Below, piece by piece: positions 7,087 through 31,664 of a DNA stretch of 64,000 nt. The DNA is from Candidatus Bathyarchaeota archaeon (GTDB lineage: Archaea; Thermoproteota; Bathyarchaeia; Bathyarchaeales; Bathyarchaeaceae). The stretch lies in NCBI GenBank assembly GCA_030608565.1, contig JAUWDY010000005.1, positions 5,359 through 69,358 on the forward strand, read 5' to 3'. Position 1 is the stretch's first letter. Every line of letters starts with the position of its first letter. A program made the translations under genes and the position numbers. The notes under the pieces were generated by a model that saw only the letters and a program-made list of their open reading frames with translations, was not told the DNA's origin and ran no database searches.

Positions 7087-7101
7087 GGTTTCTTATTTCC
7101 T

Positions 7102-13721: not shown

Positions 13722-13763
13722 GGTAAACCTTCTACCTAGTCAATGACATTTTCATTCAATTTT

Positions 13764-16700: not shown

Positions 16701-17303
16701 AAGAAAAGCTGTGGCAACGAAGTAGACTCTTAAGAAGGCAGGAGGTATGACATTCCATATAGGTCCTCTAACCCATCCAGATCTCACGCTGAACAAGAGA
16801 TAAAGGCCCCAGAGAAGCAAAACAAAGTAGATGCCCCAAAAGACATATGAAACATCAAAAGACAACTTCTTCCTCCAATTCTCCTTCACTTCAACCCTCT
16901 CATATCTCACAAAAAACAAGCTCAAGATAGAAGAGAAGCTAGTTGCGAGAACCATCCCTAACATATACCACAACTCACTCTGTAGAACAAAAACCGCCAA
17001 AATCCCAGCCAAGGCTAACACAACTAGAAAAACAAACAAACCAAAAACTATTCTGAAGAAGGGTTTCTCCTCCGAAAAGAAAACTCGACCCAAAACATCC
17101 CCATTCATGCCCAAATACACCATTAACGCAAAAAGCCCAACAAAAGGAGAGTTCAACGTAAGCGAGTTGGCGAAAATCAGAAGAACGGCTGCAAGAGGAA
17201 TAACTGTGAGAACGAGTCTTCGGTCCCTAACTATTCTCTCAAACATCTTCCAAACTCGTAGCCCAAATCTCCGAATACACGACACCATGGTGACCATTCT
17301 CAC
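13764..17303 (-). CDS. Giant (1179 aa) polytopic membrane protein with a ~480-aa extracytoplasmic C-terminal region; fused paralog of 11338..11727 + 9414..11351
   Basis: The first ~640 aa contain ~18 hydrophobic helices, followed by a long soluble region rich in N-x-S/T sequons. The protein ends DLDRDGIPDAIE. The start is a GTG in a GTGA overlap with the upstream stop. Paralogy motifs are listed under 9414..11351 and 11338..11727. Confidence 0.65.
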   Translation of the reverse strand: MRMVTMVSCIRRFGLRVWKMFERIVRDRRLVLTVIPLAAVLLIFANSLTLNSPFVGLFALMVYLGMNGDVLGRVFFSEEKPFFRIVFGLFVFLVVLALAGILAVFVLQSELWYMLGMVLATSFSSILSLFFVRYERVEVKENWRKKLSFDVSYVFWGIYFVLLLWGLYLLFSVRSGWVRGPIWNVIPPAFLRVYFVATAFLVWLLLVPGKIRTKLFATIIHSIFSLLFIVIVSYPGIIFYDPWYDLGRARTILTVVQLVWQTASQGSISVFWASPATLTLVRLLNMFLRGVTEHVLIATFAGALSVDMYWTYVFLVPVLWGIFVPVTSYRIAEMVGLTRRSSILVAFLSIPNLYFLAWGKLTEANSLGVLFFFLFLYLLLLSFSTRKTKRIYFLIMVMLVAIGVTHFVPALVSLSLLVLAFGFKGNRRFKIKYPRTSYALLAISFLVSLFIVPSLVILRGILLPMLGTSAFSLSKLLETSPWALIFGIPEDLPVLNAVLYEIYPVLGLIGLVYVLKSKKRFNRTFCKFLFLAFMALLAEHRILKYAVVGGLFSADRLRVFIDMLALPFAALVVASAIFFIVGTVATSKGSLVLSRKKFLGGTLICVSLSAWVVASTYETYDYYTKGLLPTALEVEVVKYIDEHTSSQYVVLAPQATTVISWGFLGIPNPEKWYFTVGRGGPVEPSAREMFEYMEMGGADIGYFIAPSFRLGVDFDRIVSQASRVFGLYKEFRDDSGNELYVFYYKIPPLPTGSDVAAFYWETPAAYYVQNDLLRVMINQETGTLDIVDFWGDLYESVNFNATFVDGNPVGTLTSIEYFNYTNSRWIEWTRETELVPSERFQFRLHFENSSLIGAVESGSPSVKLQWEVGQESTWSLRIGDFRRLYIPGLVGGQDSYDVNSRNYGFLYTQSRTDNIVLQPLLNQSLGSSSLTYDEIVKYCNFTREQGHFRYDLYLENTANRSQWAYVEVWLPDEVYAGAFPPLRHSIDNGKTWINTIYNVETGGSQAIRTLGGDDVNWVFTKPKTLSETPVKWWSFEEADGGSPSLPDYYTYSGGAQNRMFFGFYLPEKDKILVRLGCSAWYIQPLEMSYVFRDSDDIDYGLRNMNRSLVTFYNYGGSEYVGGLEATEKPSSLIVVENEYGEMTSLLITLPPDAQLSLFGRKEVETTTDLDRDGIPDAIE

Positions 17304-18466
17304 AATTCGTCCTCAACATACTTGTATCGAGACTTTCTGTATCTCTGCATCTCATAAACCTTCTGAAGGCCATCAGTTAGGAAGGAGGGAAACGTAGCAC
17401 TACTCACAAACATATAGTTATACCGCGACATTAGCCATTGTAGAAACTTTCCTGAACGAGAAAGCCCTAGAGTATAAACCCTCATAGGGCGCTCCTCAAA
17501 GCCATGCTCAAACTTAAACCTTCTCAGCGACCTATGAAGACTCGGTTTATCAGCCTCATAGCTTACTCTATCAAAAGAATAGTATATCCAAGCGAAACCG
17601 CCACCACAAGCATGACGAATCAAATACTCCAGCAACGCGTCATTAGGACACTTGGGCATTGACTCAGACAACGACATCATCAGCATCAATAGAATAAGCT
17701 CGTTGAACTCTAACGTTGCCGAATAAGCTATCAATCGCCCACGAAAGAATGCGCCATAAATCCTGAAGCTTTCTCCCAAGAGTTCTTTATGCTTATTCAA
17801 ATAGACCAAAAAAGCGTCCTCATCTGAATGTGGATAGCGAGGATAACGTCTCTGCCGAAGAAAAGACGACATGTTGCACAGATACATGTCAGATATCCAC
17901 TTCTCATAGGACTTAATTTCACGTACAGACACCCCCTCTTTTTCAGCCTTCCTTGTTCTATTCCTAGCATGTTTGGAAAAGCCCGTCTTCCAGATCTCTT
18001 CAAACGGTTTTCTATCACTATTAAGAACATCCATAAAGAGCGGCTGAACAGAAGCATTCCTCTTCTCAAGCCAAATATCCATGAGACGCTCATACCTTTT
18101 GGGAAGAAGAAAAGGAGCGCTTATCGTCAACAAATCGACATGATTCTCCTTCAGGGTATTTACAACCGAATCAAGCGCCTCAGGTATCATAGAAATAGCT
18201 TCAGGGCTATTAGGAAGAACAGAAGCGATGTCGTAGACAGGAACCGTGACCGATCTCAAACCAAACGATCTTTCCAAAGTAAATGGAAAAAGGAGACGGT
18301 TTTTCCCTTTCTCAAAGACCAATGGTAGAACATGTTTACCACTAAAGGATAGCACTTCATATTTGTGATGAGAAACTGCGTAGGGACTCGCTTGCACCAT
18401 CTTGTTCCACACAAGGGGGTTTCTTTCGACATAAAGTCTCATAATCACCACACACCCGTGTAGCAT
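17300..18466 (-). CDS. FemAB/CelD-like GNAT-fold (aminoacyl/acyl)transferase, divergent copy
   Basis: The central box FSKHARNRTRKAEKEGVSVREI matches LNKRARWGVRKAERVGLKVKV and LDKKCRNAIRKAMKSGVRIKEV in the two clearer paralogs. The probable start is the ATG at 18466, in a TAATG overlap with the upstream stop. The track ORF extends to 18523. Confidence 0.55.
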   Translation of the reverse strand: MLHGCVVIMRLYVERNPLVWNKMVQASPYAVSHHKYEVLSFSGKHVLPLVFEKGKNRLLFPFTLERSFGLRSVTVPVYDIASVLPNSPEAISMIPEALDSVVNTLKENHVDLLTISAPFLLPKRYERLMDIWLEKRNASVQPLFMDVLNSDRKPFEEIWKTGFSKHARNRTRKAEKEGVSVREIKSYEKWISDMYLCNMSSFLRQRRYPRYPHSDEDAFLVYLNKHKELLGESFRIYGAFFRGRLIAYSATLEFNELILLMLMMSLSESMPKCPNDALLEYLIRHACGGGFAWIYYSFDRVSYEADKPSLHRSLRRFKFEHGFEERPMRVYTLGLSRSGKFLQWLMSRYNYMFVSSATFPSFLTDGLQKVYEMQRYRKSRYKYVEDEL

Positions 18467-19698
18467 TAAACTATGGAGTTTAGCACTTCTTCTAACCTCA
18501 TGATTAAAACGTCCCAACTGCACATCTTCTCAATGTAGCTTCGGGCGTTGCGTGCAATCGATTGGGAGAAACTCTTGTCTCTAATTACCTTGAGAATAGC
18601 TGAAGAGAGCCCATTAATGTCGCCAGGTTCTACGCGCACTCCAGTATAACCATCAACAATAATGCTTTCTGAAACCGCACCACGACAGACTACGACTGGT
18701 TTCTCGCACGCCATGTATTCCAAAACGGTTAGAGGAGTGGAACCGTAGATTGTTGGGTAGGAGGTCGTAGACAGAGGACCAATTGTAACATCTGCCAAGG
18801 ATATCAACTCTGGAACAGATGAATGTTCCACACTATCTACAAATTTTACAAAATCGCTCACGCCTAAGCGCTCTGCTAGAGATGTCAACTTTGGCTGTTC
18901 AGGTCCTTCACCTACGAACAACATCACTAAATCCTTCATTTCCTTTATAATCTGAGGTAACGCTTTAATCAGTAATTCTGGATGCCTTTGTCTATAAAGA
19001 CCGCCGAGAAACAGCACAACAGTTTTATTTTCTAAGTCTAATCTTTTGCGAAGTTCATCGCATTTTATGCCGGGTTTGAAAAGTTTTGTATCTACGCCGT
19101 TCGGAAAAACTACTAGCCTTCTGTCCTCTATCCTGCCTTCTCTCTTTATAACGTCTCTTAACTCTGGACTTTGCACCAAAATGGGGCTGTCACCTCTTTT
19201 CAATACTTCCACGTTTATTTTGCCTAATGCTAAGTGATAGAGTCTTTTCAGTTTTTGGGGTTCGATGGTTTCAACTATGAAGTCGTAAATCTTCACAACT
19301 AATGGTATTTTCAGAATGCGACACAGGAGATATGCAGAAACTGTGGCTAAGTGGGTGGGATGATACATGGATATTATTGCGTCGAATTTCTCAGCGGTTC
19401 GGCTCTGATTTAGAAGTAGGGCATTCGCGATTAGTGGAACATGAGCAATTGTGTGGGTGAATAATGTTGTAAAGCCATCATACCACTGTGTAGTCAGTGG
19501 TGGAATTGGAAGCGAATTAATGATTTGAAGGTTGTTCGCTTTTTCTCTATATATTCTTGCGGTTCCGGGACAGTCAGCAGAGACAACGGTCACTGTGTGG
19601 CCTCTCTGGGCAAGTCTTCTGACGATTTCATATGTGGTAACTGTAGAGGCGTGAGTTGGTTCTGTTGAGAAGTATTGCGTTACGTAAAGCAGTTTCAT
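18466..19698 (-). CDS. Glycosyltransferase, GT-B fold, family 4-like
   Basis: The N-terminus MKLLYVTQYFSTEP...RLAQRGHTVTVV is typical of GT4. The C-terminal pattern is LTVLEYMACEKPVVVCRGAVSESIIVDGYTGVRVEPGD. Confidence 0.8.
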   Translation of the reverse strand: MKLLYVTQYFSTEPTHASTVTTYEIVRRLAQRGHTVTVVSADCPGTARIYREKANNLQIINSLPIPPLTTQWYDGFTTLFTHTIAHVPLIANALLLNQSRTAEKFDAIISMYHPTHLATVSAYLLCRILKIPLVVKIYDFIVETIEPQKLKRLYHLALGKINVEVLKRGDSPILVQSPELRDVIKREGRIEDRRLVVFPNGVDTKLFKPGIKCDELRKRLDLENKTVVLFLGGLYRQRHPELLIKALPQIIKEMKDLVMLFVGEGPEQPKLTSLAERLGVSDFVKFVDSVEHSSVPELISLADVTIGPLSTTSYPTIYGSTPLTVLEYMACEKPVVVCRGAVSESIIVDGYTGVRVEPGDINGLSSAILKVIRDKSFSQSIARNARSYIEKMCSWDVLIMRLEEVLNSIV

Positions 19699-20687
19699 TC
19701 GTTGTACCCTCTCGGCAACTCAGACATCGTTTTGACCACGAGTTTGCTTTCGTCTCTTTTACTCTTAACGTACGAAAGAACTTTCTCGAAGTTTGAAAAA
19801 AAATTTCCGTTCGCACCAAAGTCTCTAAGATGCGTATACATCGTGAAAACTTTTCCTTTTTGTATGGCCTTGTTTATTCCTTGTATTGCTTTGAATGTCA
19901 CTAATTTGAGTGGAATCATCGGCTTTTTGCCGTAAGCTAGGCATCCTGGTGTGCCAACAAGCCCATGAAGGGTCTCTTTTGGAGTTACAACGTGTGGAGG
20001 AAAAAGAAAGTAATAGGACAAAAGTTGCAGTGCTAGAGAGGAGTAGGTTTTCAGGTAGTTAGAGGGTGTCTTTTCTAATTTTGTACACGGGTACAGTTTT
20101 GGGGGCACATCTCTGAATGAGACAAAACCGTGTTTTTTTAACTCATCCAAATGTCCTACATAGTCTCTGGGAAAAGCAAAGGTTTTCGGAGAAATGTTGT
20201 ATTCGGCTTTCATGAGGTCTATACATTTGGTTATTTCCGCTTTTGCTAACTCCTCTGTACATTCAGGGTCTCCAAATTGTTGATGAGAGAAGGAGTGGCA
20301 CCCAATCTCGTGATGAACCTTGCTTCTTCTAACGTAATGGACGATTTTGTCCACAATGTCTTTGCCGTACCACGCAGGGTCTTCATTAACGTTTGTGCAA
20401 GGATCATATTTGTACCAGTCGCCGTTTAACCAAGAATATTTCGGATGCGGCATGTCAGAGTGAGGCAGTTCATTTGGGTTTTCTTTGCTGCACTGGTTTA
20501 AAATGAGATGCCCCAATATGTTCCATGTAGCAGCAACTTCGTAGTTTTCAAGTAAGGCAAAAACATTGTTTATGGCTTTCCTAACGTTTATCGAAATGCT
20601 TGTCACTTTTGTTAGATCGATTTTCTTTCTGTGTACAAAGGCCCATGCTAATTCTACGTCTATGCTTAGTGAAAAAACTCCTGGCAT
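19695..20687 (-). CDS. Polysaccharide deacetylase-like (CE4/NodB-related) protein, divergent
   Basis: Motifs seen: SLSIDVE (variant of motif 1), ATWNILGH, and HEIGCHSFSHQQF (metal-binding H-x-x-x-H-type motif). Confidence 0.6.
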   Translation of the reverse strand: MPGVFSLSIDVELAWAFVHRKKIDLTKVTSISINVRKAINNVFALLENYEVAATWNILGHLILNQCSKENPNELPHSDMPHPKYSWLNGDWYKYDPCTNVNEDPAWYGKDIVDKIVHYVRRSKVHHEIGCHSFSHQQFGDPECTEELAKAEITKCIDLMKAEYNISPKTFAFPRDYVGHLDELKKHGFVSFRDVPPKLYPCTKLEKTPSNYLKTYSSLALQLLSYYFLFPPHVVTPKETLHGLVGTPGCLAYGKKPMIPLKLVTFKAIQGINKAIQKGKVFTMYTHLRDFGANGNFFSNFEKVLSYVKSKRDESKLVVKTMSELPRGYNE

Positions 20688-20709
20688 GTTCTCACAGCGG
20701 TTTGTGTGT

Positions 20710-21741
20710 CTAAACGGCTTTCAGGTTTCTTGCATGGCGAAATAGTGTCCATGCGAGACTGCTTGTTCTCACCATATGTAGACCAGCGTAAAGAAGTCTT
20801 CGGTTTAGGTAATAGTAGTACCATTGGACATCGCCGTTCCACCGTCTTTTGTAGTGATAGACTCCAAGTAGGTATGGAACTTGTCTTGGAGGAAGCCCGT
20901 TCATATCGTAAATTGTCACGCCGTTCTCTTTGGCCCACTCTATGCTTTTCCATTGTAGTAGGTTGTTTGGATTGTATGAACGGAAGGCACTTTCAGAGGC
21001 GTTTTGAAGGAAAATCATGTTTTGGTTATAAATGAGGAATAATGAGCCTGCTATTGTGCGTTTCTGGTGTTGGGCTAAGAAAAGGCGTGCCATGTTCTTG
21101 TGATGCAGCTTGAACATTTCTCGGAAGAATTCTAGGGGTTCGGGAGGATATTGTTTCTCTTTACCATGGACCGAGAATATGTGATAGAATTGTTCCCATT
21201 CTTTCCAAACAGTCGCTACTTTCACTTTCAGTCCAACACGCTCGGCTTTTCTGACGCCCCATCTTGCTCTTTTATTGAGTGCTTGCCAAATATCTTGGAG
21301 TGGCCTGTCAAGGTTGATGATTATTGTTCGGAAAGGGTAGCAGAAGTAGCCTTCACTCTTGAACGTCTGTTCAAAACTGTTGTTTATTGGAGGAAACGGA
21401 ACAAACAGGAGGTTCAGAGCTCTCTTTTTTTTCTTGTTCAAAATCTTCAGTATGCTTCTCATCACAGCTTCCCTGTTTCCCTTAAGGTAGAGGGGACCTC
21501 CTCGGATTTCATAGGAATCAATCAGCCCCATCATCTTCTTTTTGAAGAACATCACCCCTCCAATCGCATTCCCATCGTCATAGACTATTGAGAAAAATGG
21601 CTTCATACCTAGACCATTTCTTTGCACTTGAGCCCATTCATAAGTCTGGAAAGCGTCACAAACTTCACTTTTCATCAACAATTCATTCCACTGTTGGACG
21701 TCAAGGTTATCGATATCAACTATCTTTACGTCGTACGCCAA
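20710..21741 (-). CDS. FemAB/CelD-like GNAT-fold transferase
   Basis: Motifs seen: FQTYEWAQV..., LNKRARWGVRKAERVGLKVKV, AGSLFLIYNQNMIFLQNASESAFRSYNPNNLLQWKSIEWAKENGVTIYDMNG, GVYHYKRRWNG. This pattern fits FemAB (PF02388) / Acetyltransf_6 (PF13480) proteins. Confidence 0.7.
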   Translation of the reverse strand: MAYDVKIVDIDNLDVQQWNELLMKSEVCDAFQTYEWAQVQRNGLGMKPFFSIVYDDGNAIGGVMFFKKKMMGLIDSYEIRGGPLYLKGNREAVMRSILKILNKKKKRALNLLFVPFPPINNSFEQTFKSEGYFCYPFRTIIINLDRPLQDIWQALNKRARWGVRKAERVGLKVKVATVWKEWEQFYHIFSVHGKEKQYPPEPLEFFREMFKLHHKNMARLFLAQHQKRTIAGSLFLIYNQNMIFLQNASESAFRSYNPNNLLQWKSIEWAKENGVTIYDMNGLPPRQVPYLLGVYHYKRRWNGDVQWYYYYLNRRLLYAGLHMVRTSSLAWTLFRHARNLKAV

Positions 21742-21750
21742 AACTTCACC

Positions 21751-22263
21751 TCAACTGACACTCGTTCTCTGACGAACCAATCCAACAACACTCATTAATA
21801 ATAAGACAATGCGATGTAAGAAACTTCCTGGCAATCTAGAACATAGTTCATGCAAAAAAGTATACACAAGTTTACCTTTAACATTCAACGGAATCATCAT
21901 AAGTACATAACCAAAATCTCTAAACTGTACAACTTCTCTGTACCCTACCTTTGAGGCTACATGTAAAGCTGGCAAATTCCAAAGATGTATGGCTCCAGCC
22001 ACGAAGTCCAGACCTCGTCTACGTGCTTCACTATAAGTTTTCGCCTCAAGTTTTGTGCCCAACCCTCTGCCACGATATTCTTCCTTTAGATAAGCTAGAG
22101 CGTAGTTAGATATTTTTGCAATACTACAACCACCTACTACCTTATTATCACTCGTAACACAAATAACCAATATTTGAGAGGATGAAAACGCATCCTTATA
22201 CTTCTTAGGGAACGTTTCAAGTTTATCTCTTAACTGTTCCCCACTACCTACAATAAATTTCAT
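21751..22263 (-). CDS. GNAT-family N-acetyltransferase with a hydrophobic C-terminal extension
   Basis: The acetyl-CoA-binding motif is EEYRGRGLGTKLEAK. It is paralogous to 24430..24963, sharing GEQLR, YRGRGLG, MMIPLN.KG and a C-terminal ...F/LH..CS.LP..FL.R tail. Confidence 0.7.
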   Translation of the reverse strand: MKFIVGSGEQLRDKLETFPKKYKDAFSSSQILVICVTSDNKVVGGCSIAKISNYALAYLKEEYRGRGLGTKLEAKTYSEARRRGLDFVAGAIHLWNLPALHVASKVGYREVVQFRDFGYVLMMIPLNVKGKLVYTFLHELCSRLPGSFLHRIVLLLMSVVGLVRQRTSVS

Positions 22264-22342
22264 GCAAGTCTTCCCTTCAGCCGTTCAGCTCACTTGAGAC
22301 AAAAATCATTCGCATCCACCAATCAATTAACAACCCGAACAT

Positions 22343-23317
22343 TCACCTACTCTTTAGAAAGTTAAAGAATCCTATAGCGAGTCCTATAAGCCAAGCAAAG
22401 TATCTAACATTAAAAGCAATAGGAAAAAGAAGCATACTCCAATCCTTATGTTTTTGGATTATCCTAATAGCCTGAGGCGTATGGTACAGGACAAGACAGA
22501 GAAAGGCCAGAAGCGACACCCAAACGACATTCAAAAGAAACCACAAGGGCGTAAGCACTATCAAAGATGCCAACATCAAGGGAACATACAGACTTGGTGG
22601 ATGCTGCTCCTTCCCACGCAAAAGCTCAGGATGCTGAAGAAAATTATTGATTTCATAAACCACAGTTGCGACTTGATTCTTGAAATACTTTCGCAACGAA
22701 GGAACCCATTCATGATAACATACAGCGTCCTTCTGTAAAACAACCTTCCAACCGGCTTCAAAAGCTCTATGGGCTAAGTCTTCATCGCTATTCCGTTTCA
22801 GTTTCTCATCAAAAAAACCAATCTCCTCGAGCATTTTCCTTCGATATGCTGTGGAGGCACTCGTGATGTAATCGACGTACTTCGACTCAAGTCTATCATA
22901 TCGATCCTCAGACTCGAAACCGACAACCTTCGCCCAAAAACTGGCATTGGATTTTGTGGCTAGATACCCGCTTACAATTCCAACTTTAGGATCGTTGAAC
23001 TCCCTCACTATTATGTCTAGCCAATCTCCCTTCAGGTAAATATCTGCGTCTATGATGACTACGATTTCTCGTTTGGCAACCCTTACTCCAGCATTCATCG
23101 TTGACGGGTAGCCACTATGTTCTTTCGCAATCAACTTCACAGGGTACTCTTTGACTATTCGAACCGTTTCATCCACAGAACCGTCATCCACTACGATTAC
23201 TTCAAGTTTATCATCTGGATAATTCAGCTTGGATATATGCTGGAGAACATCAGAAATAGTTAATTCACCATTGTAAACAGGAACAACCAAAGAAACGAAA
23301 GGTAAACGATTTTTCAT
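22343..23317 (-). CDS. Glycosyltransferase family 2 (GT-A) with C-terminal TM helices
   Basis: Motifs seen: VSLVVPVYNGE...VVDDGSVDET...IIDADI (DxD). Three C-terminal hydrophobic helices follow. Confidence 0.85.
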   Translation of the reverse strand: MKNRLPFVSLVVPVYNGELTISDVLQHISKLNYPDDKLEVIVVDDGSVDETVRIVKEYPVKLIAKEHSGYPSTMNAGVRVAKREIVVIIDADIYLKGDWLDIIVREFNDPKVGIVSGYLATKSNASFWAKVVGFESEDRYDRLESKYVDYITSASTAYRRKMLEEIGFFDEKLKRNSDEDLAHRAFEAGWKVVLQKDAVCYHEWVPSLRKYFKNQVATVVYEINNFLQHPELLRGKEQHPPSLYVPLMLASLIVLTPLWFLLNVVWVSLLAFLCLVLYHTPQAIRIIQKHKDWSMLLFPIAFNVRYFAWLIGLAIGFFNFLKSR

Positions 23318-23341
23318 TTTTCGCCCTCCATCCGGACACTT

Positions 23342-24463
23342 CTATGTTGCTATCGCACTAATTATACTTGGACCAACCTGCCTAACGAAAACTTGAGGCA
23401 ACAGAGACCACAATCGTGACAAAATCAAATATTTCCTTTGAAGAGGATCAGGAACCTCCGCATTTTTCATCATTAAGACATGGTTTTCTAACGGAACCTT
23501 GCAACCGCCCCAACCACTCTTAAAATGATATATTCCCCCATCTTCAGGTCTGGTTTGACCCAAATCCAAGGTTGCAAAATCGTTTTCCATCCCCCATTTA
23601 ATAAGGTGCCATAACAGAAGATTCGTCGGATTTAGCCTCGAATATTTTCGATCCATAACGTTGTTAAACCAGTACAATTTGTTCCCAAAATAAAACACGG
23701 TTATACCACCTATAGCCTTACCGTCAGACAACGCCAATATCATGCGCAACCCCTTTTGTTGAAACACGTCAAAAACGTTTCTAAAGAAAACCTCCGAATG
23801 CGGCGGAGAACCATGCCTGCTTTCAGTATCCAAGTGTAAACGATAATATTGCCCGATATCATCGAAGTCAACTTCCTTAATCCTAACACCCGACTTCATG
23901 GCTTTACGAATGGCATTTCTGCATTTCTTATCTAAACTTCCCCAAAGCTCAGACTCGCCTTTCGTCAGGTCCACCTCAAAGGTTAGATATCTTCGCATAG
24001 GTCTAAAAACCGAAGTTGGAAACGTCAGGGAAAGAGAAAATCTAGGTTGCCTCAATTCCACGTAGTCTACCCCAAGAGCCCTAGCTAAGGCACTGAGACG
24101 CTTAGAAAAAATAGCTAAAGTCAATTTCACATCTGAAGAATCAATTGAATTCGCTAAAAGTGGACCACCATACTCCGCAAAGGGAAGCGAAACAAGTTTG
24201 TCAGCGAATATCCTGCTTCTGATGTAGATCAGCGGTAGAACTCCTACGATCTCCTCACCTCGTTTCACAGCAAAATAATATCGCTGATACCGATACGTCT
24301 TGCAAAGAACATCGCCCCATTCCCACAGATGGTAGAAACTGGCCCAAGGATTAGACGTAACCCATTCATTCCACAAATCTTTATCATCGCCAAAAAACGG
24401 AACTATCGAAAAACTCAACTCAAGCCCGCCTAATCTTCTTGAACAGTCCTCTTGTAGAACCAC
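23342..24463 (-). CDS. FemAB/CelD-like GNAT-fold transferase
   Basis: Motifs seen: FYHLWEWGDV..., LDKKCRNAIRKAMKSGVRIKEV, IGGITVFYFGNKLYWFNNVMDRKYSRLNPTNLLLWHLIKWGMENDFATLDLGQ, GIYHFKSGWGG. The real start may be internal, because the track ORF overlaps the upstream gene by 34 nt. Confidence 0.7.
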   Translation of the reverse strand: MVLQEDCSRRLGGLELSFSIVPFFGDDKDLWNEWVTSNPWASFYHLWEWGDVLCKTYRYQRYYFAVKRGEEIVGVLPLIYIRSRIFADKLVSLPFAEYGGPLLANSIDSSDVKLTLAIFSKRLSALARALGVDYVELRQPRFSLSLTFPTSVFRPMRRYLTFEVDLTKGESELWGSLDKKCRNAIRKAMKSGVRIKEVDFDDIGQYYRLHLDTESRHGSPPHSEVFFRNVFDVFQQKGLRMILALSDGKAIGGITVFYFGNKLYWFNNVMDRKYSRLNPTNLLLWHLIKWGMENDFATLDLGQTRPEDGGIYHFKSGWGGCKVPLENHVLMMKNAEVPDPLQRKYLILSRLWSLLPQVFVRQVGPSIISAIAT

Positions 24464-24963
24464 CCATGGACACGCGTTAAGAATAAGTCAGGCAGAAAGG
24501 AGCACACATCCTTCAAAAACTCACATACAAATCTACCTTTGAGGTTTAAAGGAATCATCATTAAAATAAGATTGGGTTTTCTAAGGTATGCAACCTCTTT
24601 GAACCCGCACTTGGAATAAAGGTGAAATGCCGTTATATTATCAGAAGAAACAGACAAGGTTACGAAATTGAGCCCCCGCTTCTGCGCTACATCAATTGTT
24701 TTCGCCAAGACTTCTGAGCCCAATCCTCGACCACGATAACCTTCTTCAACATACAAAACAAGAACATTGAATATGCTCCTTATGCCACAAGCAGCTACTG
24801 CGTCATTATCGTTGACTATGAAAACGACCAGTAACCCAGAAGAAGCAAGTTCGCTTGCCAACGGAAACCCTTGCACTTTTCCTCTCAATTGCTCGCCATG
24901 ACCACAAAGAAACTTCACGTATGGTTCCCCAAACAATTGATATGCTAGGCTATCAACCATCAT
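24430..24963 (-). CDS. GNAT-family N-acetyltransferase (paralog of 21751..22263)
   Basis: Motifs seen: EEGYRGRGLGSEVLAK, HLYSKCGFKEV, MMIPLNLKG. See the paralog notes under 21751..22263. Confidence 0.7.
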   Translation of the reverse strand: MMVDSLAYQLFGEPYVKFLCGHGEQLRGKVQGFPLASELASSGLLVVFIVNDNDAVAACGIRSIFNVLVLYVEEGYRGRGLGSEVLAKTIDVAQKRGLNFVTLSVSSDNITAFHLYSKCGFKEVAYLRKPNLILMMIPLNLKGRFVCEFLKDVCSFLPDLFLTRVHGWFYKRTVQED

Positions 24964-25823
24964 ATATTTATCCCATAAGCTTCTTCAAGCATGCTCATCA
25001 CGGGCACTCTCTTGCAATCGCTGAAAGTTTTTAGAATATGTTCGATAGCTTTAAGCGTATATTCTCCACATCGCCTAGTAACATGAAAAGGAATCCCATC
25101 AAATTTTGGAACGTTCGAGTCTACATCTAATGGATGGAAGTAAAGAACGACAGGTAAGCCCTTACGTAATAGAAGCCTAACCGCTGTCTTCACATAGTCC
25201 ACACCTAAATTCCTCAAAAACCACCCTCCTCCTGCCGGCAGACGAATGTGTGGAAAAACCGCAACAGGAACCTCAAAAAAATCCCTGTGCTCAGACTGCT
25301 TCACAAGGTTTTGCCTGCTTGGACGGTACGGATGAAGCGGAGCACCGTAGTAGCCAAACCACCCAGGTATTTTGATGGACGGCGCGACGGAAGAATCATA
25401 TAGATACCCAATCCTCTCAAGCACATCAAGAACCTCCGTGTTAATTTGAAAATTCGGAGCTCGAAAACCCTTAGGCGTCTCTCCAGTTATCTTTTCTAAC
25501 AAACTTCGATTCCTTTTCTCCATCTTTTCTAACTCATCAAAGGGAATCTTAGTGAAGTCCCGGTGCATGTACCCATGAGAAGCTATCTCGTGACCTAAAT
25601 CATGAATTTCTTCAACAATTTCTGGAAAGGCCTCGGCAACTTCGCCTAACACGAAGAAAGTTGAGCTTACGTGATAATCTTCAAATATCTTCAAAATGCT
25701 CCGAAGAGGTTTAAAGAAGGTTCCCTTAGGAAGCTTATAATCATAGTATTTTAGGATCTCCTCTTCTCCAGGAGGCCACAAGTCATGATAGATTTCTTCA
25801 ACATCAACGGTGAGGCTCATCAA
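24960..25823 (-). CDS. Polysaccharide deacetylase (CE4), exosortase-locus-like subtype
   Basis: Motifs seen: LTVDVEE...SSTFFVLGEVAEAFPEIVEEIHDLGHEIASHGYMH. This resembles the deacetylase family found in PEP-CTERM/exosortase loci (from memory). Confidence 0.8.
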   Translation of the reverse strand: MMSLTVDVEEIYHDLWPPGEEEILKYYDYKLPKGTFFKPLRSILKIFEDYHVSSTFFVLGEVAEAFPEIVEEIHDLGHEIASHGYMHRDFTKIPFDELEKMEKRNRSLLEKITGETPKGFRAPNFQINTEVLDVLERIGYLYDSSVAPSIKIPGWFGYYGAPLHPYRPSRQNLVKQSEHRDFFEVPVAVFPHIRLPAGGGWFLRNLGVDYVKTAVRLLLRKGLPVVLYFHPLDVDSNVPKFDGIPFHVTRRCGEYTLKAIEHILKTFSDCKRVPVMSMLEEAYGINI

Positions 25824-25848
25824 TACTCTTAACCACTAGTTTCCACTT

Positions 25849-26856
25849 CTATCTATGCGCCGCACATCTTCCATTTACAATTTCAAATATGGCTTCTTTT
25901 GGGCTCTTCAACGCTTCAATTTTGAAGAAGCCTTTGATATCTCCAATGTCAGTATGCATGGCACGCTTATCTCCGACGCTGAAAAGGATGGGCAATCCCT
26001 TGTCGACGACCTTGATCTCGGGATTAACTTTTCCGGTCGTATGAAGGATAATAGCCTCCTTAACGATTTCTGCCAACTCTAAAATTGTTATTGGCTTAGG
26101 ATGGAACAAATTGAAGATGTGCCTTTCTGAAGTTTCTGTGCCTGTTCCTTCATCCATGATTTCTTTTATGCGCGAATGAAAAGCTTTGCAAACGTCGTCT
26201 ATAGCTATGTAGAGCATGGGTCGATACATGCTGTGCAGGTATGGTGTTATCGGTTTTCCTTTCAGTCCATTTGTTATGAAAATGTTGGCCGCAGCTTTTT
26301 CGGGCATATGCTCACCTAGGACGGTGCCCAACCTCATTATATTATAGGTCTTTTCGCTAGCTATATCATCATAAAAGCGCATAAGCCCTTCCTGAATCAT
26401 TTTAGACACAACGTAGAGTTTGGCCCTATCCTCCACCTTGTCTGGACGATAACCAAACGAAACGTCTATTACTCCGCCGTATTCTCGCTCACCGAAAACG
26501 TGCCAAGTACCAGTGAGAATGAGTGCTGAAGTTTCAGGAGTCTCTTTAACAAGCCTGCATAGGTTCTGGGTGCCAAGAACATTCACTTCATACGCTCGCT
26601 CCTTCACCTCATCGATAGCTGGAATCTGAATGATAGCCGTGTGAATCACAACCCTCGGCTTTCCAAGCTTATCTCTAACCTCGTCAAATCGTGTTATGTC
26701 ACAGGTTCTATGCTCAACATCAACATCCTTCAACAACGGAGGAGCAGGAACAACATCAAACGTAACCACATCATAATAACGACTCAAATGCCCGGCAAGT
26801 GCTGATCCCACAAAGCCAGCGCCAATAATGGCTACGTCATAAGGCCTCAATCTCAC
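25849..26856 (-). CDS. NAD(P)-dependent epimerase/dehydratase/oxidoreductase (SDR-like)
   Basis: It has the N-terminal Rossmann motif VAIIGAGFVGSALAG and a YxxxK motif (YVVSKMIQE). It is 335 aa. Confidence 0.7.
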   Translation of the reverse strand: MRLRPYDVAIIGAGFVGSALAGHLSRYYDVVTFDVVPAPPLLKDVDVEHRTCDITRFDEVRDKLGKPRVVIHTAIIQIPAIDEVKERAYEVNVLGTQNLCRLVKETPETSALILTGTWHVFGEREYGGVIDVSFGYRPDKVEDRAKLYVVSKMIQEGLMRFYDDIASEKTYNIMRLGTVLGEHMPEKAAANIFITNGLKGKPITPYLHSMYRPMLYIAIDDVCKAFHSRIKEIMDEGTGTETSERHIFNLFHPKPITILELAEIVKEAIILHTTGKVNPEIKVVDKGLPILFSVGDKRAMHTDIGDIKGFFKIEALKSPKEAIFEIVNGRCAAHR

Positions 26857-26865
26857 CGCCTCAAA

Positions 26866-27636
26866 TTAGTCTTTCACAAACGAGCGAGCTTGTAAACTTT
26901 GTGGATACTTCCATCCAGGAGACTTGAGCAACGCAAGGTTTTGAGGCAACGCCTCACCAAAGCTCGTGTATTCAACGTCAAACGTGAAGGCTATCCCATT
27001 GGCGCTCAACAATTCATGGGCTCTAACAAAGGTCATGCCACTTTCCAACAAAGGCTCCAATATTGCTTTAATGTATTTTTTTCGCCCCATTCTCCAAACA
27101 TGCATGCAGATCGCAGCCCCCACTGATTTACTGCATTCTGACGTCCATTTAGCAACAAGCTCCTCGGGTTTAAAGTGCATAAGATCCAGCCCATGGGTAT
27201 CCAAAGGAGATACAACAGGAATGACCAGAGCCCTGAACCCGTTTGGACGATACTTCACCAAACCATACTCAGAACTGTCATAATCCATGTTTAGATCTTC
27301 GCAAGCTAAGTAGGTCGCCCTATTCCGAACCAAGAATGGAGCCCGAAAGCCTCTAATTTCTTGGTATTTACTGAGAACCGTGATACTTTTTAGGATGTCT
27401 TCTTTCGCTTCTGCACGACTCACTTCAGAGAAGTCACCGTGAGCATAACTGTGGGAACCGATTTCATGGTCATGTTTACATATTTTCTGAAGTATTTCCG
27501 GATGCTTTTCAGCAACTCTACCAGTGATAAAAAAGGTTGCGTGGACACCATGCTCAGAAAGTGCTTCTAAAATGTTATCAATATGCTTGTGAACATTAAA
27601 CGAAAGCCTTTCGCTCACTCCTCTTATAATCCACAT
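26866..27636 (-). CDS. Polysaccharide deacetylase (CE4)
   Basis: Motifs seen: HATFFITGRVAEKHPEILQKICKHDHEIGSHSYAHGDF. This is the NodB-type H-x-x-x-H motif in a TFF...G context. Confidence 0.75.
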   Translation of the reverse strand: MWIIRGVSERLSFNVHKHIDNILEALSEHGVHATFFITGRVAEKHPEILQKICKHDHEIGSHSYAHGDFSEVSRAEAKEDILKSITVLSKYQEIRGFRAPFLVRNRATYLACEDLNMDYDSSEYGLVKYRPNGFRALVIPVVSPLDTHGLDLMHFKPEELVAKWTSECSKSVGAAICMHVWRMGRKKYIKAILEPLLESGMTFVRAHELLSANGIAFTFDVEYTSFGEALPQNLALLKSPGWKYPQSLQARSFVKD

Positions 27637-27650
27637 TTCTAACCCTCAAA

Positions 27651-28400
27651 TCATTCCCAGTTTGCCATCGAGGTAACGTATTTCTCGATTTCTTTATCCT
27701 TCTGAAAAGCCTTGATTTCCGCCGGGACTCCGTAAGCCACCGCTTTAGGTGGTATGTCTTTTGTAACTACTGATCCTGCGCCTATTAGCGCGTATTTTCC
27801 TATGGTTACGCCTGGTAAGATCTTTGTTCCCGCACTTATTCGAACATAATCCTCAATTGTAGCTCCGTTGAGACCTTGTCCGAGAATTATCTTTTTGTTG
27901 TCAAGAAATACGCATCCGGGTGCTATGAACACCCCGTTTCCTATCCTCACCGACTGAGCAACGTAACATTGACTTTGTATCATCGACCCGCTTCCCACCC
28001 TGATGTATCCATCCAGAATCGCTTGTGTTCCAACGATGCAGTTATCTCCAATGGTTACATGCTCCCTAATCAATACGCTATGCCCGGTGCGTAAGTTCTT
28101 CCCGACGACCACATGTCTGTAAATAGTTGAGCCAGACCGTATTATTGACCCTTCGCCTATCTTTGTAACAGGTTCCTTTACTATCAAGTCTGAAACCTTT
28201 GGGCTGGTTGCAGAAAAATCCGCTTTCTGAAGTTCAAGTTTAGATGGATGCCCGATTATGCAGCGGCTACCTATGACGCAATTGTCTCCTATAACTGAGC
28301 CGGACAAGATTTCAGCAAATCGACCTATGCTAACGTTATTGCCTATCTTCGCCTCATCGTCCACGTAAGCTTTAAATCTCATTCCCGGTTTTCCGCCCAA
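27651..28400 (-). CDS. Left-handed beta-helix (hexapeptide-repeat) sugar N-acetyltransferase
   Basis: Many [LIV]-G-x-x-x-x hexapeptide repeats are present ([53 protein letters not shown]). Confidence 0.8.
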
Positions 28401-28419
28401 GCTAAAATCTCACTGCTCG

Positions 28420-29565
28420 CTATCCTAGATTTTCAACGAAGTCCCTGACACCAGTTACAATGTGGTCCATTTCATCCTTCGTTAGCGATGCGTACATAGG
28501 TAAAGTAAGAACTTGCTTAGAAATTTTTTCGGTCATCGGCAGTTCTCCACCTTGAAACCCAAATTTCTCTTTATAGAACCCTGTTAAATGCACTGGAGAG
28601 AAATACACCTTGGTCATCACACCTTTTTCAGCCAAGTAGCCTTTAAGACCGTCTCTAGTTTTCTCTCCATCCCTAGCCCTTACAGTATACATTTGATAAA
28701 CGTGGAAAAATCCCTCAGGAGGATTAGGTGGCTCAATCTTGCTCAGGTTCGACAGGCTCTTCGACATGTAAGCGGCGTTTCTCCTCCTCATCGCTATGAC
28801 CTTGCCCAGCTTTTCAAGTTGGGAGACTCCGAGAGCCGCAATTATGTTGCACATGCGCCAGTTGTATCCTAAAGCCACATAATCCATAACCTTTGCTGAC
28901 GTGAAATAATTCTCTGTTTCAAGCCTGCCATGAGACCGTATAAGCTTTAACCTTTCGTAGACGTCACGTTGGTCGGTCGCGATCATCCCGCCCTCTCCCG
29001 TGGTAATCACCTTGTTCCCACAAAAACTGAACATAGCTGCATCACCAAACGACCCTACACGCTTTCCATCGACTTTAGCCCCAAGAGATTCAGCAGCATC
29101 CTCCAAAAGCAACAGCTTATGATCTTCAGCTATTTCCTTCAGCTCCCTGATTTGGCAAGCTGAACCTCCATAATGGATTGGCATTATAGCCTTCGTCTTC
29201 CCCGTAATTCTCTCTTTCACATCTTCAGGATCCAAACCACACGTTTTCTCCTCTATGTCCGCAAACACCGGTTTAGCATTTACGAAAAGCACCGAGTTGG
29301 CCGTAGCTATGAAAGTGAAGGAAGGAACAATCACCTCGTCACCTTCCTTTATTCCGTAGGCCAATAACATAGCATGCAAGGCGGAGGTGCCTGAGTTGAA
29401 AGCTGCCACGTATTTCTTTCCAATGTACTCTGCAAGCATGGTTTCAAACTTTTCCACGTTAGGCCCAATCGCCCAGTACGACCCTTGCATAATAACCTCT
29501 AACACGTGATTAACGTCTTCTTCATCCCAGTAAATCTTGTAGAAGGGGACTCTCCAGCTCCGCAT
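28420..29565 (-). CDS. DegT/DnrJ/EryC1/StrS-family PLP-dependent sugar aminotransferase
   Basis: Motifs seen: NSGTSALH, the PLP-lysine box FSFCGNKVITTGEGG, and IRSHGR. It is 381 aa. Confidence 0.85.
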   Translation of the reverse strand: MRSWRVPFYKIYWDEEDVNHVLEVIMQGSYWAIGPNVEKFETMLAEYIGKKYVAAFNSGTSALHAMLLAYGIKEGDEVIVPSFTFIATANSVLFVNAKPVFADIEEKTCGLDPEDVKERITGKTKAIMPIHYGGSACQIRELKEIAEDHKLLLLEDAAESLGAKVDGKRVGSFGDAAMFSFCGNKVITTGEGGMIATDQRDVYERLKLIRSHGRLETENYFTSAKVMDYVALGYNWRMCNIIAALGVSQLEKLGKVIAMRRRNAAYMSKSLSNLSKIEPPNPPEGFFHVYQMYTVRARDGEKTRDGLKGYLAEKGVMTKVYFSPVHLTGFYKEKFGFQGGELPMTEKISKQVLTLPMYASLTKDEMDHIVTGVRDFVENLG

Positions 29566-29566
29566 C

Positions 29567-29986: not shown

Positions 29987-29995
29987 TTGACTCCG

Positions 29996-31649: not shown

Positions 31650-31664
31650 TCACCTGAATACACT

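Follow-up and report, generated by a model that had tools for sequence, protein, structure and literature searches.

FemAB-like transferases, CE4 deacetylases and an archaeosortase in a surface-glycan gene cluster of a Bathyarchaeia archaeon

Which product is made by an archaeal gene cluster that encodes FemAB-like transferases next to deacetylases of the CE4 family, and does it bear on the archaeosortase encoded in the same stretch of DNA? The question is raised by positions 17300-27636 of a 64-kb segment of contig JAUWDY010000005.1 (the window in the following, i.e. the whole stretch that was analysed). They lie at the heart of a ~27-kb cluster for surface-glycan biosynthesis, and the organism belongs to the Bathyarchaeia. 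A first-pass annotation had noted eight open reading frames (ORFs) here and had read them as duplicated modules for an aminoacyl- or acyl-decorated amino-sugar polymer, in a locus resembling the exopolysaccharide (EPS) loci of bacterial exosortase/PEP-CTERM systems. All eight are present on the minus strand in the ORF listing. The encoded proteins point to the deacetylation of a lipid-linked amino sugar followed by formation of a new amide, with an amino acid as the group that we lean towards. The core of the system consists of a GT2 glycosyltransferase, a CE4 enzyme and one Fem enzyme. A system of this kind is known in the form of the Wbp/Vim pathway; what is new is that the present one is archaeal, archaeosortase-linked, triplicated and GT-C-routed.

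Deacetylases and FemAB-like proteins

Genes of the window carry the numbers g01 to g26, while L-numbered loci are contig stretches of related organisms used for comparison. Families were assigned by Pfam and NCBIfam hidden Markov model (HMM) scans of the window proteins with curated cut-offs. The central genes are:

g20, 26866..27636, minus strand: CE4 deacetylase, apparently of a circularly permuted subtype (PF01522, 76.9 bits)
g18, 24960..25823, minus strand: CE4 plus DUF3473, core predicted de-N-acetylase (PF01522, 79.3 bits; DUF3473, 58 bits), related to TIGR03006 and VimE
g17, 24430..24963, minus strand: small acetyl-coenzyme A (CoA)-type GNAT (PF00583, 51.2 bits)
g16, 23342..24463, minus strand: FemABX-fold transferase, core copy (PF13480, 68.1 bits; PF02388, 66.1 bits), related to TIGR03019 and VimA
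g15, 22343..23317, minus strand: GT2 glycosyltransferase with two C-terminal hydrophobic segments (PF00535, 96.8 bits)
g14, 21751..22263, minus strand: small acetyl-CoA-type GNAT of the accessory cassette (PF00583, 36.3 bits)
g13, 20710..21741, minus strand: FemAB-family transferase of the accessory cassette (PF02388, 91.5 bits)
g12, 19695..20687, minus strand: divergent CE4-like protein of the accessory cassette (PF01522, 28.7 bits)
g10, 17300..18523, minus strand: highly divergent FemAB-like protein, probable start 18442

The three deacetylases had been recognised correctly: all of them score above the PF01522 cut-off of 23.1 bits, and g18 and g20 share 35% identity over 108 residues (BLAST). 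They had also been expected to keep their metal-binding and catalytic residues, and upon alignment the CE4 set is found in all three, in g20 in permuted order. In g18, residues D7, E9, H83, H87, R121 and H230 are conserved to at least 90% across 16 homologues from archaea, candidate phyla radiation (CPR) bacteria and Poribacteria. Protein g12 has an acidic SIDVE motif (D10/E12) together with H131, H135, R174 and H286, all retained in its orthologues. H62, H66, R98 and H179 of g20 are invariant in an alignment of relatives; its N-terminus reads SFNVH, a TFDVE motif is found at the C-terminus (218-222, with D220/E222), and alignments with PDB sequences start past the motif-1 region. Relatives of g20 without the N-terminal TFD carry TFD(V/I/L)(E/D) at the C-terminus, while three relatives with the N-terminal motif have no typical C-terminal one, a weak GFDT being present in one of them. 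This alternation between the two termini suggests a circular permutation that leaves the catalytic set complete, the motif-1 aspartate strand of the g20 subfamily appearing to have moved from the N- to the C-terminus. The idea that g20 is a dead enzyme lacking the motif-1 aspartates was dropped, because the motif is C-terminal in exactly those members that lack it at the N-terminus. Relatives at E ≤1e-30 number only three among 1.8 billion representative proteins.

The same holds for the count of three FemAB-like genes. Proteins g16 and g13 pass Pfam (gathering cut-off of PF02388, 24 bits), while g10 is identified by profile alignment and its orthologues: it stays below the Pfam cut-offs with 19.6 (PF02388) and 18.5 bits and has no NCBIfam match. 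Aligned with a profile of g16 homologues, g10 obtains an hhalign probability of 94.8% (E 4.9e-8, 289 columns) and g13 one of 99.8%, and the g10 orthologues in L017 and L018 carry PF13480. Alignments of g10 orthologues suggest a start at 18442 and not at 18466, as had been annotated. In PDB sequence searches, g16 and g13 match staphylococcal and Weissella FemX, g13 with E values of 1e-8 to 2e-7. Lys305 is the catalytic residue of FemX, and of the equivalent residues Phe328 and Lys329 in DhpH-C both contribute to activity and Lys329 is essential (PMC12945691). F314-K315 of g16 aligns with F304-K305 of FemX_Wv and is invariant in 28 homologues; Y296-K297 and F336-K337 are the corresponding pairs in g13 and g10. 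Sequence, profile and predicted fold (see below) agree that the FemABX relationship is real and that these proteins are not ordinary acetyl-CoA GNATs. Neither a transmembrane (TM) segment nor a signal peptide was found in g16, g13, g10, g18, g20 or g12, and all six are predicted from their sequences to act in the cytoplasm.

Both the FemAB-like and the deacetylase families had been linked to TIGR03019 and TIGR03006 as families of PEP-CTERM/exosortase loci. The numbers are right and the two models are the best NCBIfam matches of g16 and g18, respectively, whereas membership did not stand, both proteins scoring below the equivalog cut-offs. TIGR03019 matches g16 over model positions 2-328 of 330 with 192.5 bits (cut-off 260.35) and TIGR03006 matches g18 over positions 3-243 of 272 with 149.6 bits (cut-off 276.2). 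All 28 aligned g16 homologues are matched by TIGR03019 (best E 8.8e-69), and none of the scores obtained for this clade reaches the cut-off. Much lower values result for g13 (47.5 bits with TIGR03019, no match for g10) and for g20 and g12 (75.4 and 16.2 bits with TIGR03006). Filing g16 and g18 as true members was rejected on account of these scores; by sequence, the two are best described as relatives of these families in a sister clade.

The resemblance to XrtA/PEP-CTERM EPS loci goes beyond the two best curated, full-length family matches. It includes the position of a deacetylase gene before the FemAB-like gene, relatives of XrtA-type GT4 glycosyltransferases with TIGR04063 as best match, a gene of the exosortase superfamily and tripartite C-terminal signals nearby. 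The order CE4-then-FemAB also occurs in the bacterial XrtA locus of Rubrivivax (RGS1_10399/10400; PMC3684757). In the window, the CE4/DUF3473 gene lies upstream of g16 with one GNAT gene in between. There are also differences: the window comes from an archaeon, which has no outer membrane, and contains no EpsH/XrtA, PrsK/PrsR, Wza/Wzc or asparagine-synthase-type genes; its sorting gene belongs to the archaeosortase family and not to XrtA, and its C-terminal signals resemble PEF-CTERM and not PEP-CTERM. The functions of bacterial TIGR03006 and TIGR03019 proteins are themselves unproven.

Duplicated modules, two paralogous GNATs and a separating GT2 gene had likewise been described. Both small GNATs match PF00583; g17 and g14 are 44.7% identical over 152 residues (E 1e-43), and an RGRGLG acetyl-CoA motif is present in both. 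The GT2 protein between the two GNAT-FemAB pairs is g15, which MftF, PgaC and HpnI-like NCBIfam models match below cut-off (PgaC/IcaA similarity, 81.8 bits). The repeated architecture as such is real, but it combines ancient paralogs (FemAB-like proteins 22-27%, GNATs 45% identical) with a cassette and did not arise by duplication in place. All-against-all BLAST gave 24% identity for g13 with g16 and 22-27% for g10 with the other two copies, and with Fem paralogs this distant and from different subfamilies, a recent tandem duplication of the GNAT-FemAB module was discarded.

Two contigs of related archaea, L017 and L018, encode core FemAB-like proteins 75-76% identical to g16. The architecture of L018 is identical to that of the window, while L017 lacks g17 and the whole g14-g13-g12 cassette. 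Proteins of the upstream block from g25 to g16 are 70-86% identical between these contigs and the window, compared with 37-49% for the downstream proteins g11, g10 and g09. We regard the locus as modular, with a conserved core and a variable tail, and the GNAT-FemAB-CE4 cassette g14-g13-g12 (19695-22263) as a putative mobile accessory unit that varies in the way of serotype-variable glycan genes.

The amide-forming step and its donor

Which group do the FemAB-like proteins transfer? An AlphaFold2 (AF2) model of g16 (predicted local distance difference test score, pLDDT, 88.3) was compared with PDB structures using Foldseek. The top 11 matches are all aminoacyl-tRNA-dependent enzymes (E 4e-17 to 1.5e-13), namely FemX, FemA and Sba18/Sbb17 bound to the amino-sugar substrate streptothrisamine. 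The CoA-binding motif Q/RxxGxG/A is found in neither g16 nor g10 and is missing from 25 of the 28 g16 homologues. On the basis of these structural neighbours and of the absent motif, aminoacyl-tRNA may or may not be the donor of the g16 family, with the chances about evenly divided.

The obvious competing possibility is that the FemAB-like proteins depend on acyl-CoA or an acyl carrier and add an acyl group other than an amino acid, e.g. hydroxybutyryl or acetyl, as has been proposed for HfsK and for BcsL/CelD-type PF13480 proteins. The Pfam description of PF13480 is that of a GNAT acetyltransferase domain, older annotations of VimA made it an acetyl-CoA transferase (PMC7468200), and HfsK, whose closest solved relative is FemX, is a putative N-acyltransferase acting after the deacetylase HfsH (PMC5362036). 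CoA-dependent tandem GNATs do turn up in the fold search with E ~5e-10; the first of them, however, appears only at E 4.5e-10, behind 11 aminoacyl-tRNA-dependent enzymes at E ≤1.5e-13. The CoA pyrophosphate-binding motif that g16, g10 and most homologues lack is present in the neighbouring small GNATs, the catalytic Phe-Lys pair of FemX is invariant, and three conventional acetyltransferases are already encoded in the cluster. Moreover, exchange of VimA changes the amino acid on a sugar, and an ATP-grasp protein from a family that includes amino-acid and carboxylate ligases takes the analogous position in locus L023. Taken together, we consider acyl-CoA dependence unlikely.

The L023 protein deserves attention. 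At positions 13204-14430, this locus encodes an ATP-grasp ligase of 408 aa with weak similarity to CPSase, LysX, RimK and Ddl, located between a CE4/DUF3473 gene and a GT4 gene, i.e. exactly at the position that Fem occupies in the window and L021. As judged from its sequence and position, the ligase gene seems to be a non-homologous substitute for the FemAB-like gene. An unrelated ligase from a family that includes amide-bond-forming amino-acid ligases at the position of Fem suggests that the step after deacetylation is amide formation on the exposed amine, and this is the strongest comparative argument that we can offer. The gene following CE4 varies among the loci: it is GNAT plus Fem in the window and L021 (and also in L025, a contig that starts at this point), Fem alone in L017, ATP-grasp in L023 and directly GT4 in L024 and L027. 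Gene numbers for CE4 and Fem co-vary (3:3, 3:3, 2:2, 2:1, 1:0 plus ATP-grasp, 1:0 and 1:0). A core of PpgS-like GT2, CE4/DUF3473 and g16-type Fem, followed by an aminotransferase or GNAT, a GT4 and a GT-C protein, recurs in distant loci, and this core or the CE4-Fem adjacency was seen in Bathyarchaeia, Promethearchaeota, Woesearchaeota, CPR bacteria and Poribacteria. Loci L025 (2245-3018) and L026 (3234-3986) additionally encode a DUF7411/QueC-like PP-loop ATPase without counterpart in the window. Its role may be of the amidotransferase type, comparable to what asparagine-synthase-like genes do in XrtA and Wbp loci.

Among characterised systems, the nearest is the Wbp/Vim pathway, by which Porphyromonas gingivalis and Tannerella forsythia make a linking sugar and which comprises VimE, VimA and VimF. 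VimE belongs to the CE4 family, and its proposed reaction is the removal of the 2-N-acetyl group from a di-N-acetyl uronic acid. VimA matches TIGR03019; if vimA is exchanged between species, an N-seryl linking sugar becomes an N-glycyl one (Veith et al. 2020, PMC7468200). The amine of the amino acid on the linking sugar then receives the C-terminus of type IX secretion system (T9SS) cargo, with PorU acting as sortase, and the same authors speculated that VimA-like proteins of exosortase/PEP-CTERM loci make the acceptor (PMC7468200). Both systems encode an aminotransferase and a hexapeptide acetyltransferase, which in the Wbp case make a di-N-acetylated amino sugar and whose window counterparts are WbpE-like (DegT) and WbpD-like (hexapeptide) genes. 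Further common features are a CE4 enzyme, there removing one N-acetyl group, and a FemAB/TIGR03019-related protein, there setting the replacing amino acid, encoded in one locus. The Wbp/Vim product offers its amine to a C-terminal sorting transpeptidase, which couples surface proteins to it. On the other hand, the window lacks WbpA/WbpB-type genes (neither a UDP-sugar 6-dehydrogenase nor a Gfo/Idh/MocA oxidoreductase was found there in the Pfam/NCBIfam scans), so that its sugar is probably not a 2,3-diamino uronic acid. It also lacks T9SS and PorU, has a sorting enzyme of the archaeosortase family and a route via a PpgS-like GT2 and GT-C proteins, and compares with three CE4, three Fem and two small GNAT genes to a single CE4/Fem pair. 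The link to VimA and VimE runs through the TIGR03019 and CE4 families only.

Further parallels concern the Fem fold. FemX, FemA and FemB, working together with sortase A in staphylococci, and Orf11/Sba18 of BD-12 biosynthesis share with the window proteins the tandem-GNAT Fem fold, the Phe-Lys motif and the occurrence of several Fem paralogs per organism. In Staphylococcus, the glycine amine built by Fem enzymes is the sortase nucleophile. Orf11 acylates an amino-sugar amine with Gly-tRNA as the donor (PMC12945691). The acceptors of these enzymes are peptidoglycan precursor lysine or an antibiotic intermediate. In the archaeon there is no peptidoglycan; that each Fem gene of the window is accompanied by a CE4 deacetylase gene implies sugar amines as acceptors. 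In the Caulobacter holdfast system, the CE4 deacetylase HfsH is combined with the FemX-like tandem GNAT HfsK, for which re-acylation of exposed amines has been proposed (PMC5362036). Both affect anchoring of a surface polysaccharide, and HfsK is regulated by c-di-GMP via its C-terminal tail.

Several points weigh against deacetylation followed by aminoacylation. Transfer of function from the XrtA and Vim families is indirect, with 192.5 bits against a required 260.35 and 149.6 against 276.2. Direct transfer by VimA was inferred and aminoacyl-tRNA not mentioned (PMC7468200), and HfsK, although FemX-like, was described only as a 'putative N-acyltransferase' (PMC5362036). A shared fold does not settle which donor is used, g10 has diverged strongly and may have another function than the other two copies, and the CE4 enzymes could act on nucleotide sugars instead of lipid-linked ones. 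The logic of deacetylating and then re-acylating or aminoacylating, put forward in the first-pass annotation, gains from the VimE/VimA precedent (PMC7468200) and from the ATP-grasp protein at the Fem position in L023, while the mechanism as such is inferred; we regard deacetylation followed by aminoacylation as the somewhat more probable course.

The predicted lipid-linked route

What carries the sugar while it is modified? The genes that bear on this are:

g24, 29996..30718, minus strand: GT2, polyprenyl-phosphate sugar synthase-like (PF00535, 82.8 bits)
g23, 29567..29986, minus strand: DUF2304 small membrane protein, partner of g24 (PF10066, 47.9 bits; three hydrophobic segments)
g09, 13764..17303, minus strand: 1179-aa membrane protein, ~14 TM segments in the N-terminal part and a C-terminal part of ~430 aa
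g06+g05, 9414..11727 (g06 11338-11727, g05 9414-11351), minus strand: split protein of GT-C fold, GT39/PMT_2-like (PF13231, 26.0 bits)

The NCBIfam models matching g24 are NF058614 PpgS (113.5 bits), AglJ (87.1 bits) and ArnC (54 bits), all below cut-off, and its orthologues adjoin a CE4 gene in every related locus. PF13231 was found in many homologues of g05, one of which has been named a GT39 protein by NCBI. Proteins g06 (129 aa) and g05 (645 aa) are encoded with an overlap of 14 nt. Among homologues, split (~640 aa) and fused (~760 aa) forms are both common, the latter occurring in L020, L022 and L026; a frameshift artefact was rejected since the form of ~640 aa is the commonest. All of the top 19 PDB fold matches of the g05 AF2 model (pLDDT 79.5, predicted template modelling score 0.80) are GT-C proteins, among them STT3, ArnT, DPY19, AftA, PglB, AftD and ALG9. 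PDB sequence searches with g09 and a g05 profile yielded nothing useful, and the GT-C assignment of g05 came from the fold search only. No family or PDB sequence match was obtained for g09, whose halves gave nothing even at permissive Pfam/NCBIfam thresholds. It is a fused paralog of g05 (31% identity over 616 aa, E 9e-48) and is considered a probable GT-C protein through this paralogy. Orthologues of g10 always precede a protein of ~1150 aa (L017, L018 and L025), so that g10 pairs with the large GT-C protein.

The donors of GT-C enzymes are linked to polyprenyl phosphate and are used outside the membrane. Two pathways that modify amino sugars on a lipid are ArnC/ArnD/ArnT and mycobacterial PpgS, the latter together with Rv3632 and a GT-C partner. 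In such pathways, polyprenyl phosphate is charged with an N-acylated amino sugar by a GT2 enzyme, a cytoplasmic CE4 enzyme de-acylates the sugar on the lipid and a GT-C enzyme transfers it outside. We know of no re-acylation or aminoacylation step in the Arn or PpgS pathways. By analogy, the window route resembles ArnC/ArnD/ArnT with an added re-acylation step, and a small DUF2304 membrane protein beside the GT2 is a further shared feature, while the matches to ArnC, ArnD and PpgS (54, 16 and 113 bits) lie far below the NCBIfam cut-offs. The combination of a PpgS/ArnC-like GT2, DUF2304, cytoplasmic CE4 and Fem enzymes and GT-C proteins suggests that a lipid-linked sugar is modified and not a finished EPS.

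An EPS-type polymer, the product that had first been proposed, thus gives way to an architecture for lipid-linked sugar modification. In its most explicit form, the polymer proposal would have a polysaccharide completed and exported first and then partially de-N-acetylated by the CE4 enzymes, in the way of PgaB, IcaB and PelA, with a polycationic EPS as the result. CE4 enzymes of that kind are well known and g15 is weakly PgaC/IcaA-like, with 81.8 bits and below cut-off. The three CE4 proteins, however, have no signal peptide or TM segment and are encoded interleaved with enzymes that need cytoplasmic cofactors; extracellular deacetylation of a polymer was discarded for the missing export signals. 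No Wzx, Wzy, Wza, PgaA-type or synthase-type export or polymerase genes were detected in the window by the Pfam/NCBIfam scans, and the GT-C enzymes and the PpgS-like GT2 point to lipid-linked intermediates. We hold such an EPS to be very improbable.

The genes surrounding the central part fit a glycan pathway. From g26 to g08 (31991..13023) they form a minus-strand string with gaps of at most 79 nt and several 4-nt overlaps. After g08 follow a 1.3-kb interval with an opposite-strand beta-helix gene and a second string, g06 to g01 (11727..5164), for a GT-C protein, a GT4, a DegT aminotransferase, the archaeosortase and a short-chain dehydrogenase/reductase (SDR). Transcriptionally upstream of 17300-27636 are genes for an SDR, the PpgS/AglJ/ArnC-like GT2, the DUF2304 membrane protein, a DegT aminotransferase and a NeuD/PglD-type hexapeptide acetyltransferase.

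g26, 31665..31991, minus strand: small protein of ~108 aa heading the GT2-CE4 core (longest ORF to 32099)
g25, 30711..31649, minus strand: SDR sugar-nucleotide epimerase or 4,6-dehydratase (PF01370, 155.7 bits; GalE and dTDP-glucose 4,6-dehydratase models below cut-off)
g22, 28420..29565, minus strand: DegT/PseC-type sugar aminotransferase (PF01041, 389.7 bits)
g21, 27651..28400, minus strand: hexapeptide sugar N-acetyltransferase of the NeuD/PglB/VioB type (PF00132, 125.5 bits; TIGR03570, 114.4 bits, below cut-off)
g19, 25849..26856, minus strand: SDR epimerase or reductase (PF01370, 58.2 bits)
g11, 18466..19698, minus strand: GT4 glycosyltransferase (PF00534, 99.3 bits; best NCBIfam match the XrtA-system glycosyltransferase TIGR04063, 124 bits, below cut-off)
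g08, 13023..13721, minus strand: S-adenosylmethionine-dependent methyltransferase (PF08241, 74.6 bits)
g04, 8214..9323, minus strand: GT4 glycosyltransferase (TIGR04063, 128.6 bits, below cut-off)
g03, 7102..8217, minus strand: DegT-type sugar aminotransferase adjoining the archaeosortase gene (LegC and PseC models, ~310 bits)
g01, 5164..6135, minus strand: SDR, 4,6-dehydratase-like, LegB-like (TIGR04180, 252.8 bits, below cut-off)

Protein g26 matches no Pfam or NCBIfam model, permissive thresholds included. Homologues with 56-70% identity are encoded in L002, L017, L018, L021, L023 and L024, always just upstream of the GT2-CE4 genes, and g26 is more conserved than the enzymes of the locus.

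Gene families and their order, intact catalytic motifs, modelled folds, the absence of export signals from the enzymes and synteny have been described as observations; from them, the following sequence of events can be proposed. SDRs, a DegT aminotransferase and the hexapeptide N-acetyltransferase would make an N-acetylated (di)amino sugar. The PpgS/ArnC-like GT2 and DUF2304 may then load an N-acetylhexosamine-type sugar on polyprenyl (dolichyl) phosphate at the cytoplasmic face, where up to three CE4 enzymes would strip specific N-acetyl groups and expose the sugar amines. The three FemABX-fold enzymes would form new amides on them, most likely with the amino acid of an aminoacyl-tRNA, in the manner of VimE/VimA and Orf11. 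One resulting amine, possibly the alpha-amine of the added amino acid, could be acetylated by the two small GNATs, and the glycan would be extended by GT2 and GT4 enzymes. Finally, the GT-C-fold proteins g09 and g06+g05 would transfer the lipid-linked product at the outer face of the membrane. Last and least certain, the archaeosortase may use the amino or aminoacyl sugar as the amine for attachment of its substrates.

Archaeosortase linkage and candidate substrates

Is the archaeosortase part of the same system? Its gene had been noted as co-located, and although it resides outside 17300-27636, the linkage is kept in related Bathyarchaeia contigs:

g02, 6223..7086, minus strand: exosortase/archaeosortase-family protein of no named subfamily (TIGR04178, 44.6 bits, cut-off 23)

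Subfamily HMMs stay below their cut-offs, the best being ArtC (TIGR03762, 25.6 bits versus 100), followed by ArtF (21 versus 150). An alignment of 22 homologues shows C196, R241 and H261 to be invariant; g02 has several hydrophobic segments, and PF09721 is found in homologues.

Synteny was examined for nine contigs carrying the g02 subfamily, the window included. A DegT aminotransferase gene adjoins the archaeosortase gene in eight of them, and the triad DegT-archaeosortase-SDR is kept in L019, L022 and L026. The GT2-CE4/DUF3473 core or its Fem partner resides on the archaeosortase contig in seven of the nine. In four of these, L021, L023, L024 and L027, core and archaeosortase are separated by 1.4-4 kb, and the archaeosortases concerned are only ~50% identical to g02. 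The other three are the window, the contig comprising L017 and L020 and that comprising L019 and L025; in the last one, only GNAT-FemAB is visible at the contig start, the CE4 gene presumably being cut off. What the contigs have in common around the archaeosortase is a set of genes for producing an amino sugar, with aminoacylation as a frequent elaboration. In L020, a PIG-L/BshB1-type GlcNAc de-N-acetylase (8894-9520) is encoded directly beside a 48%-identical archaeosortase, which is in turn followed by a PMT_2-like GT-C protein. With the L020 deacetylase, another type of amine-exposing enzyme, unrelated to the first, is found next to this sorting enzyme.

A precedent for such synteny is ArtA. 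An acceptor role of the archaetidylethanolamine amine was proposed from the synteny of artA with pssA/pssD in haloarchaea and Methanosarcina, and Cys-173 was identified as the active-site residue (PMC7157517). The window shares with ArtA/PssA/PssD an archaeosortase syntenic with genes for a proposed amine acceptor as well as the invariant cysteine (C196 in g02). It differs in that genes for an amino or aminoacyl sugar take the place of those for a phospholipid headgroup, and g02 is not ArtA. In the literature searched, we found no paper that links archaeosortases or Bathyarchaeota to VimA or FemAB-type genes.

Three proteins of the window are candidate substrates:

44949..46091, minus strand: cohesin protein (PF00963) ending in VPEFPFG, a TM helix and a K/R-rich tail
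49630..52578, minus strand: cohesin/PKD/CARDB protein ending in LPEAPFG, a TM helix and a K-rich tail
52707..54011, minus strand: cohesin/PKD/CARDB protein ending in SEPFP, a TM helix and RRKRT

NCBIfam sorting-signal models stay below threshold for all candidates, the only match to PEF-CTERM TIGR03024 being 13.4 bits (cut-off 23) for 52707-54011. In L024, a neighbour of the 52%-identical archaeosortase has a similar C-terminus, with PIPEFPWG followed by a TM helix and RRK. From their domains, the regions 35040-59372 and 1224-4396 are taken to encode an archaeal cohesin-dockerin surface system. Cohesin/PKD/CARDB scaffolds are encoded at 40819-44874, 44949-46091, 47241-48137, 49630-52578 and 52707-54011. 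Dockerin tails occur, among others, on a NosD beta-helix protein (35040-36749), on an S8 protease (38087-40765) and on BNR proteins (48204-49457 and 54129-55751), and the C-terminal sequences alone suggest that 1224-2045 and 57234-59372 are likely dockerin-tailed as well. PEF-like C-terminal anchor signals are present only on cohesin proteins, the dockerin-bearing proteins of the region having no such tails. A neighbourhood of NosD, S8 peptidase and dockerin recurs beside the archaeosortase in L023 and L024.

Since an archaeosortase gene accompanies the cluster, the amine made by the latter may serve this enzyme. In that case, the amine nucleophile of the archaeosortase would be an amino or aminoacyl sugar, borne by a glycolipid or glycan that derives from dolichyl phosphate, a proposal that we put forward as tentative and rather doubtful. 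No less speculative is the attachment itself, in which the tail of cohesin scaffolds (PE(F/A)PFG, TM helix, basic residues) would be cleaved and the new C-termini linked to the sugar-borne amine as amides.

It is more conceivable, with chances that we rate as even, that an ordinary archaeal N-glycosylation or S-layer glycan locus is present, that the proximity of the archaeosortase is meaningless and that the sugar serves as decoration (charge, serotype) and not as anchor. The archaeosortase gene belongs to a separate string, at least 10 kb away from the Fem and CE4 genes and with an opposite-strand gene in between. Two Bathyarchaeia loci, L002 and L004, have a CE4-Fem pair and no archaeosortase within 10 kb, while L022 and L026 have an archaeosortase and, as far as their flanks are visible, no CE4 gene. 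CPR bacteria and Woesearchaeota have CE4-Fem pairs too, and related archaea differ in the accessory cassette in the manner of serotype genes. The amine could be capped by the small GNATs, and an aminoacyl amine thus acetylated could not be a nucleophile. All of this weighs against a role in anchoring. Opposed to mere decoration are the contig counts given above, i.e. the GT2-CE4 core on seven and the adjoining sugar aminotransferase on eight of nine archaeosortase contigs, with close spacing in four lineages whose archaeosortases are as distant as ~50% identity. In addition, amine acceptors have been proposed or shown for related sorting enzymes, archaetidylethanolamine for ArtA (PMC7157517) and the aminoacyl linking sugar for PorU (PMC7468200).

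As to the organism, g02 is 94% identical to a protein from a metagenome-assembled genome (MAG) of Candidatus Bathyarchaeum, other homologues being annotated as Candidatus Bathyarchaeota, and a second protein of the same MAG matches g05. A scan of GTDB genomes with the single g16 sequence for close relatives gave no match; a profile scan recovered relatives whose nearest GTDB species are Bathyarchaeia (42-51% identity) and one Promethearchaeota MAG (44%). Neither tRNA genes nor housekeeping markers were found in the window, and the taxonomic placement is based on the near-identical MAG proteins. Between the glycan cluster and the NosD gene lie four ORFs of 148-162 aa with signal-peptide-like N-termini (32364-32810, 33009-33497, 33772-34236 and 34420-34887), the first two of which have no NCBIfam match. 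Two permeases and two ATPases encoded at 59549-63946 look like an ordinary ABC transporter operon of the Opp/Dpp type, as judged from the sequence termini only.

Ever since their first description, exosortases and most archaeosortases have lacked an identified acceptor molecule, and the VimE/VimA linking sugar for the T9SS sortase of Bacteroidota is the only experimentally supported analogue. In archaea, genes for a predicted amine-exposing step followed by a predicted amide-forming step, the latter Fem-like, ATP-grasp or omitted, travel with an archaeosortase gene, and candidate substrates are encoded nearby. If a sugar amine were the acceptor, it would represent an archaeal counterpart of sortase A with its Fem-built pentaglycine and of PorU with the Vim linking sugar. 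It would at the same time provide a glycosylphosphatidylinositol-like glycolipid anchor for cohesin-dockerin surface display and a concrete answer to the question of the attachment target of the exosortase family. Should the mechanism hold true, tRNA-dependent non-ribosomal aminoacylation of sugars would be extended to archaea. Even if the link to the archaeosortase were coincidental, the locus would still be a clear case of cassette-wise diversification of archaeal surface glycans.

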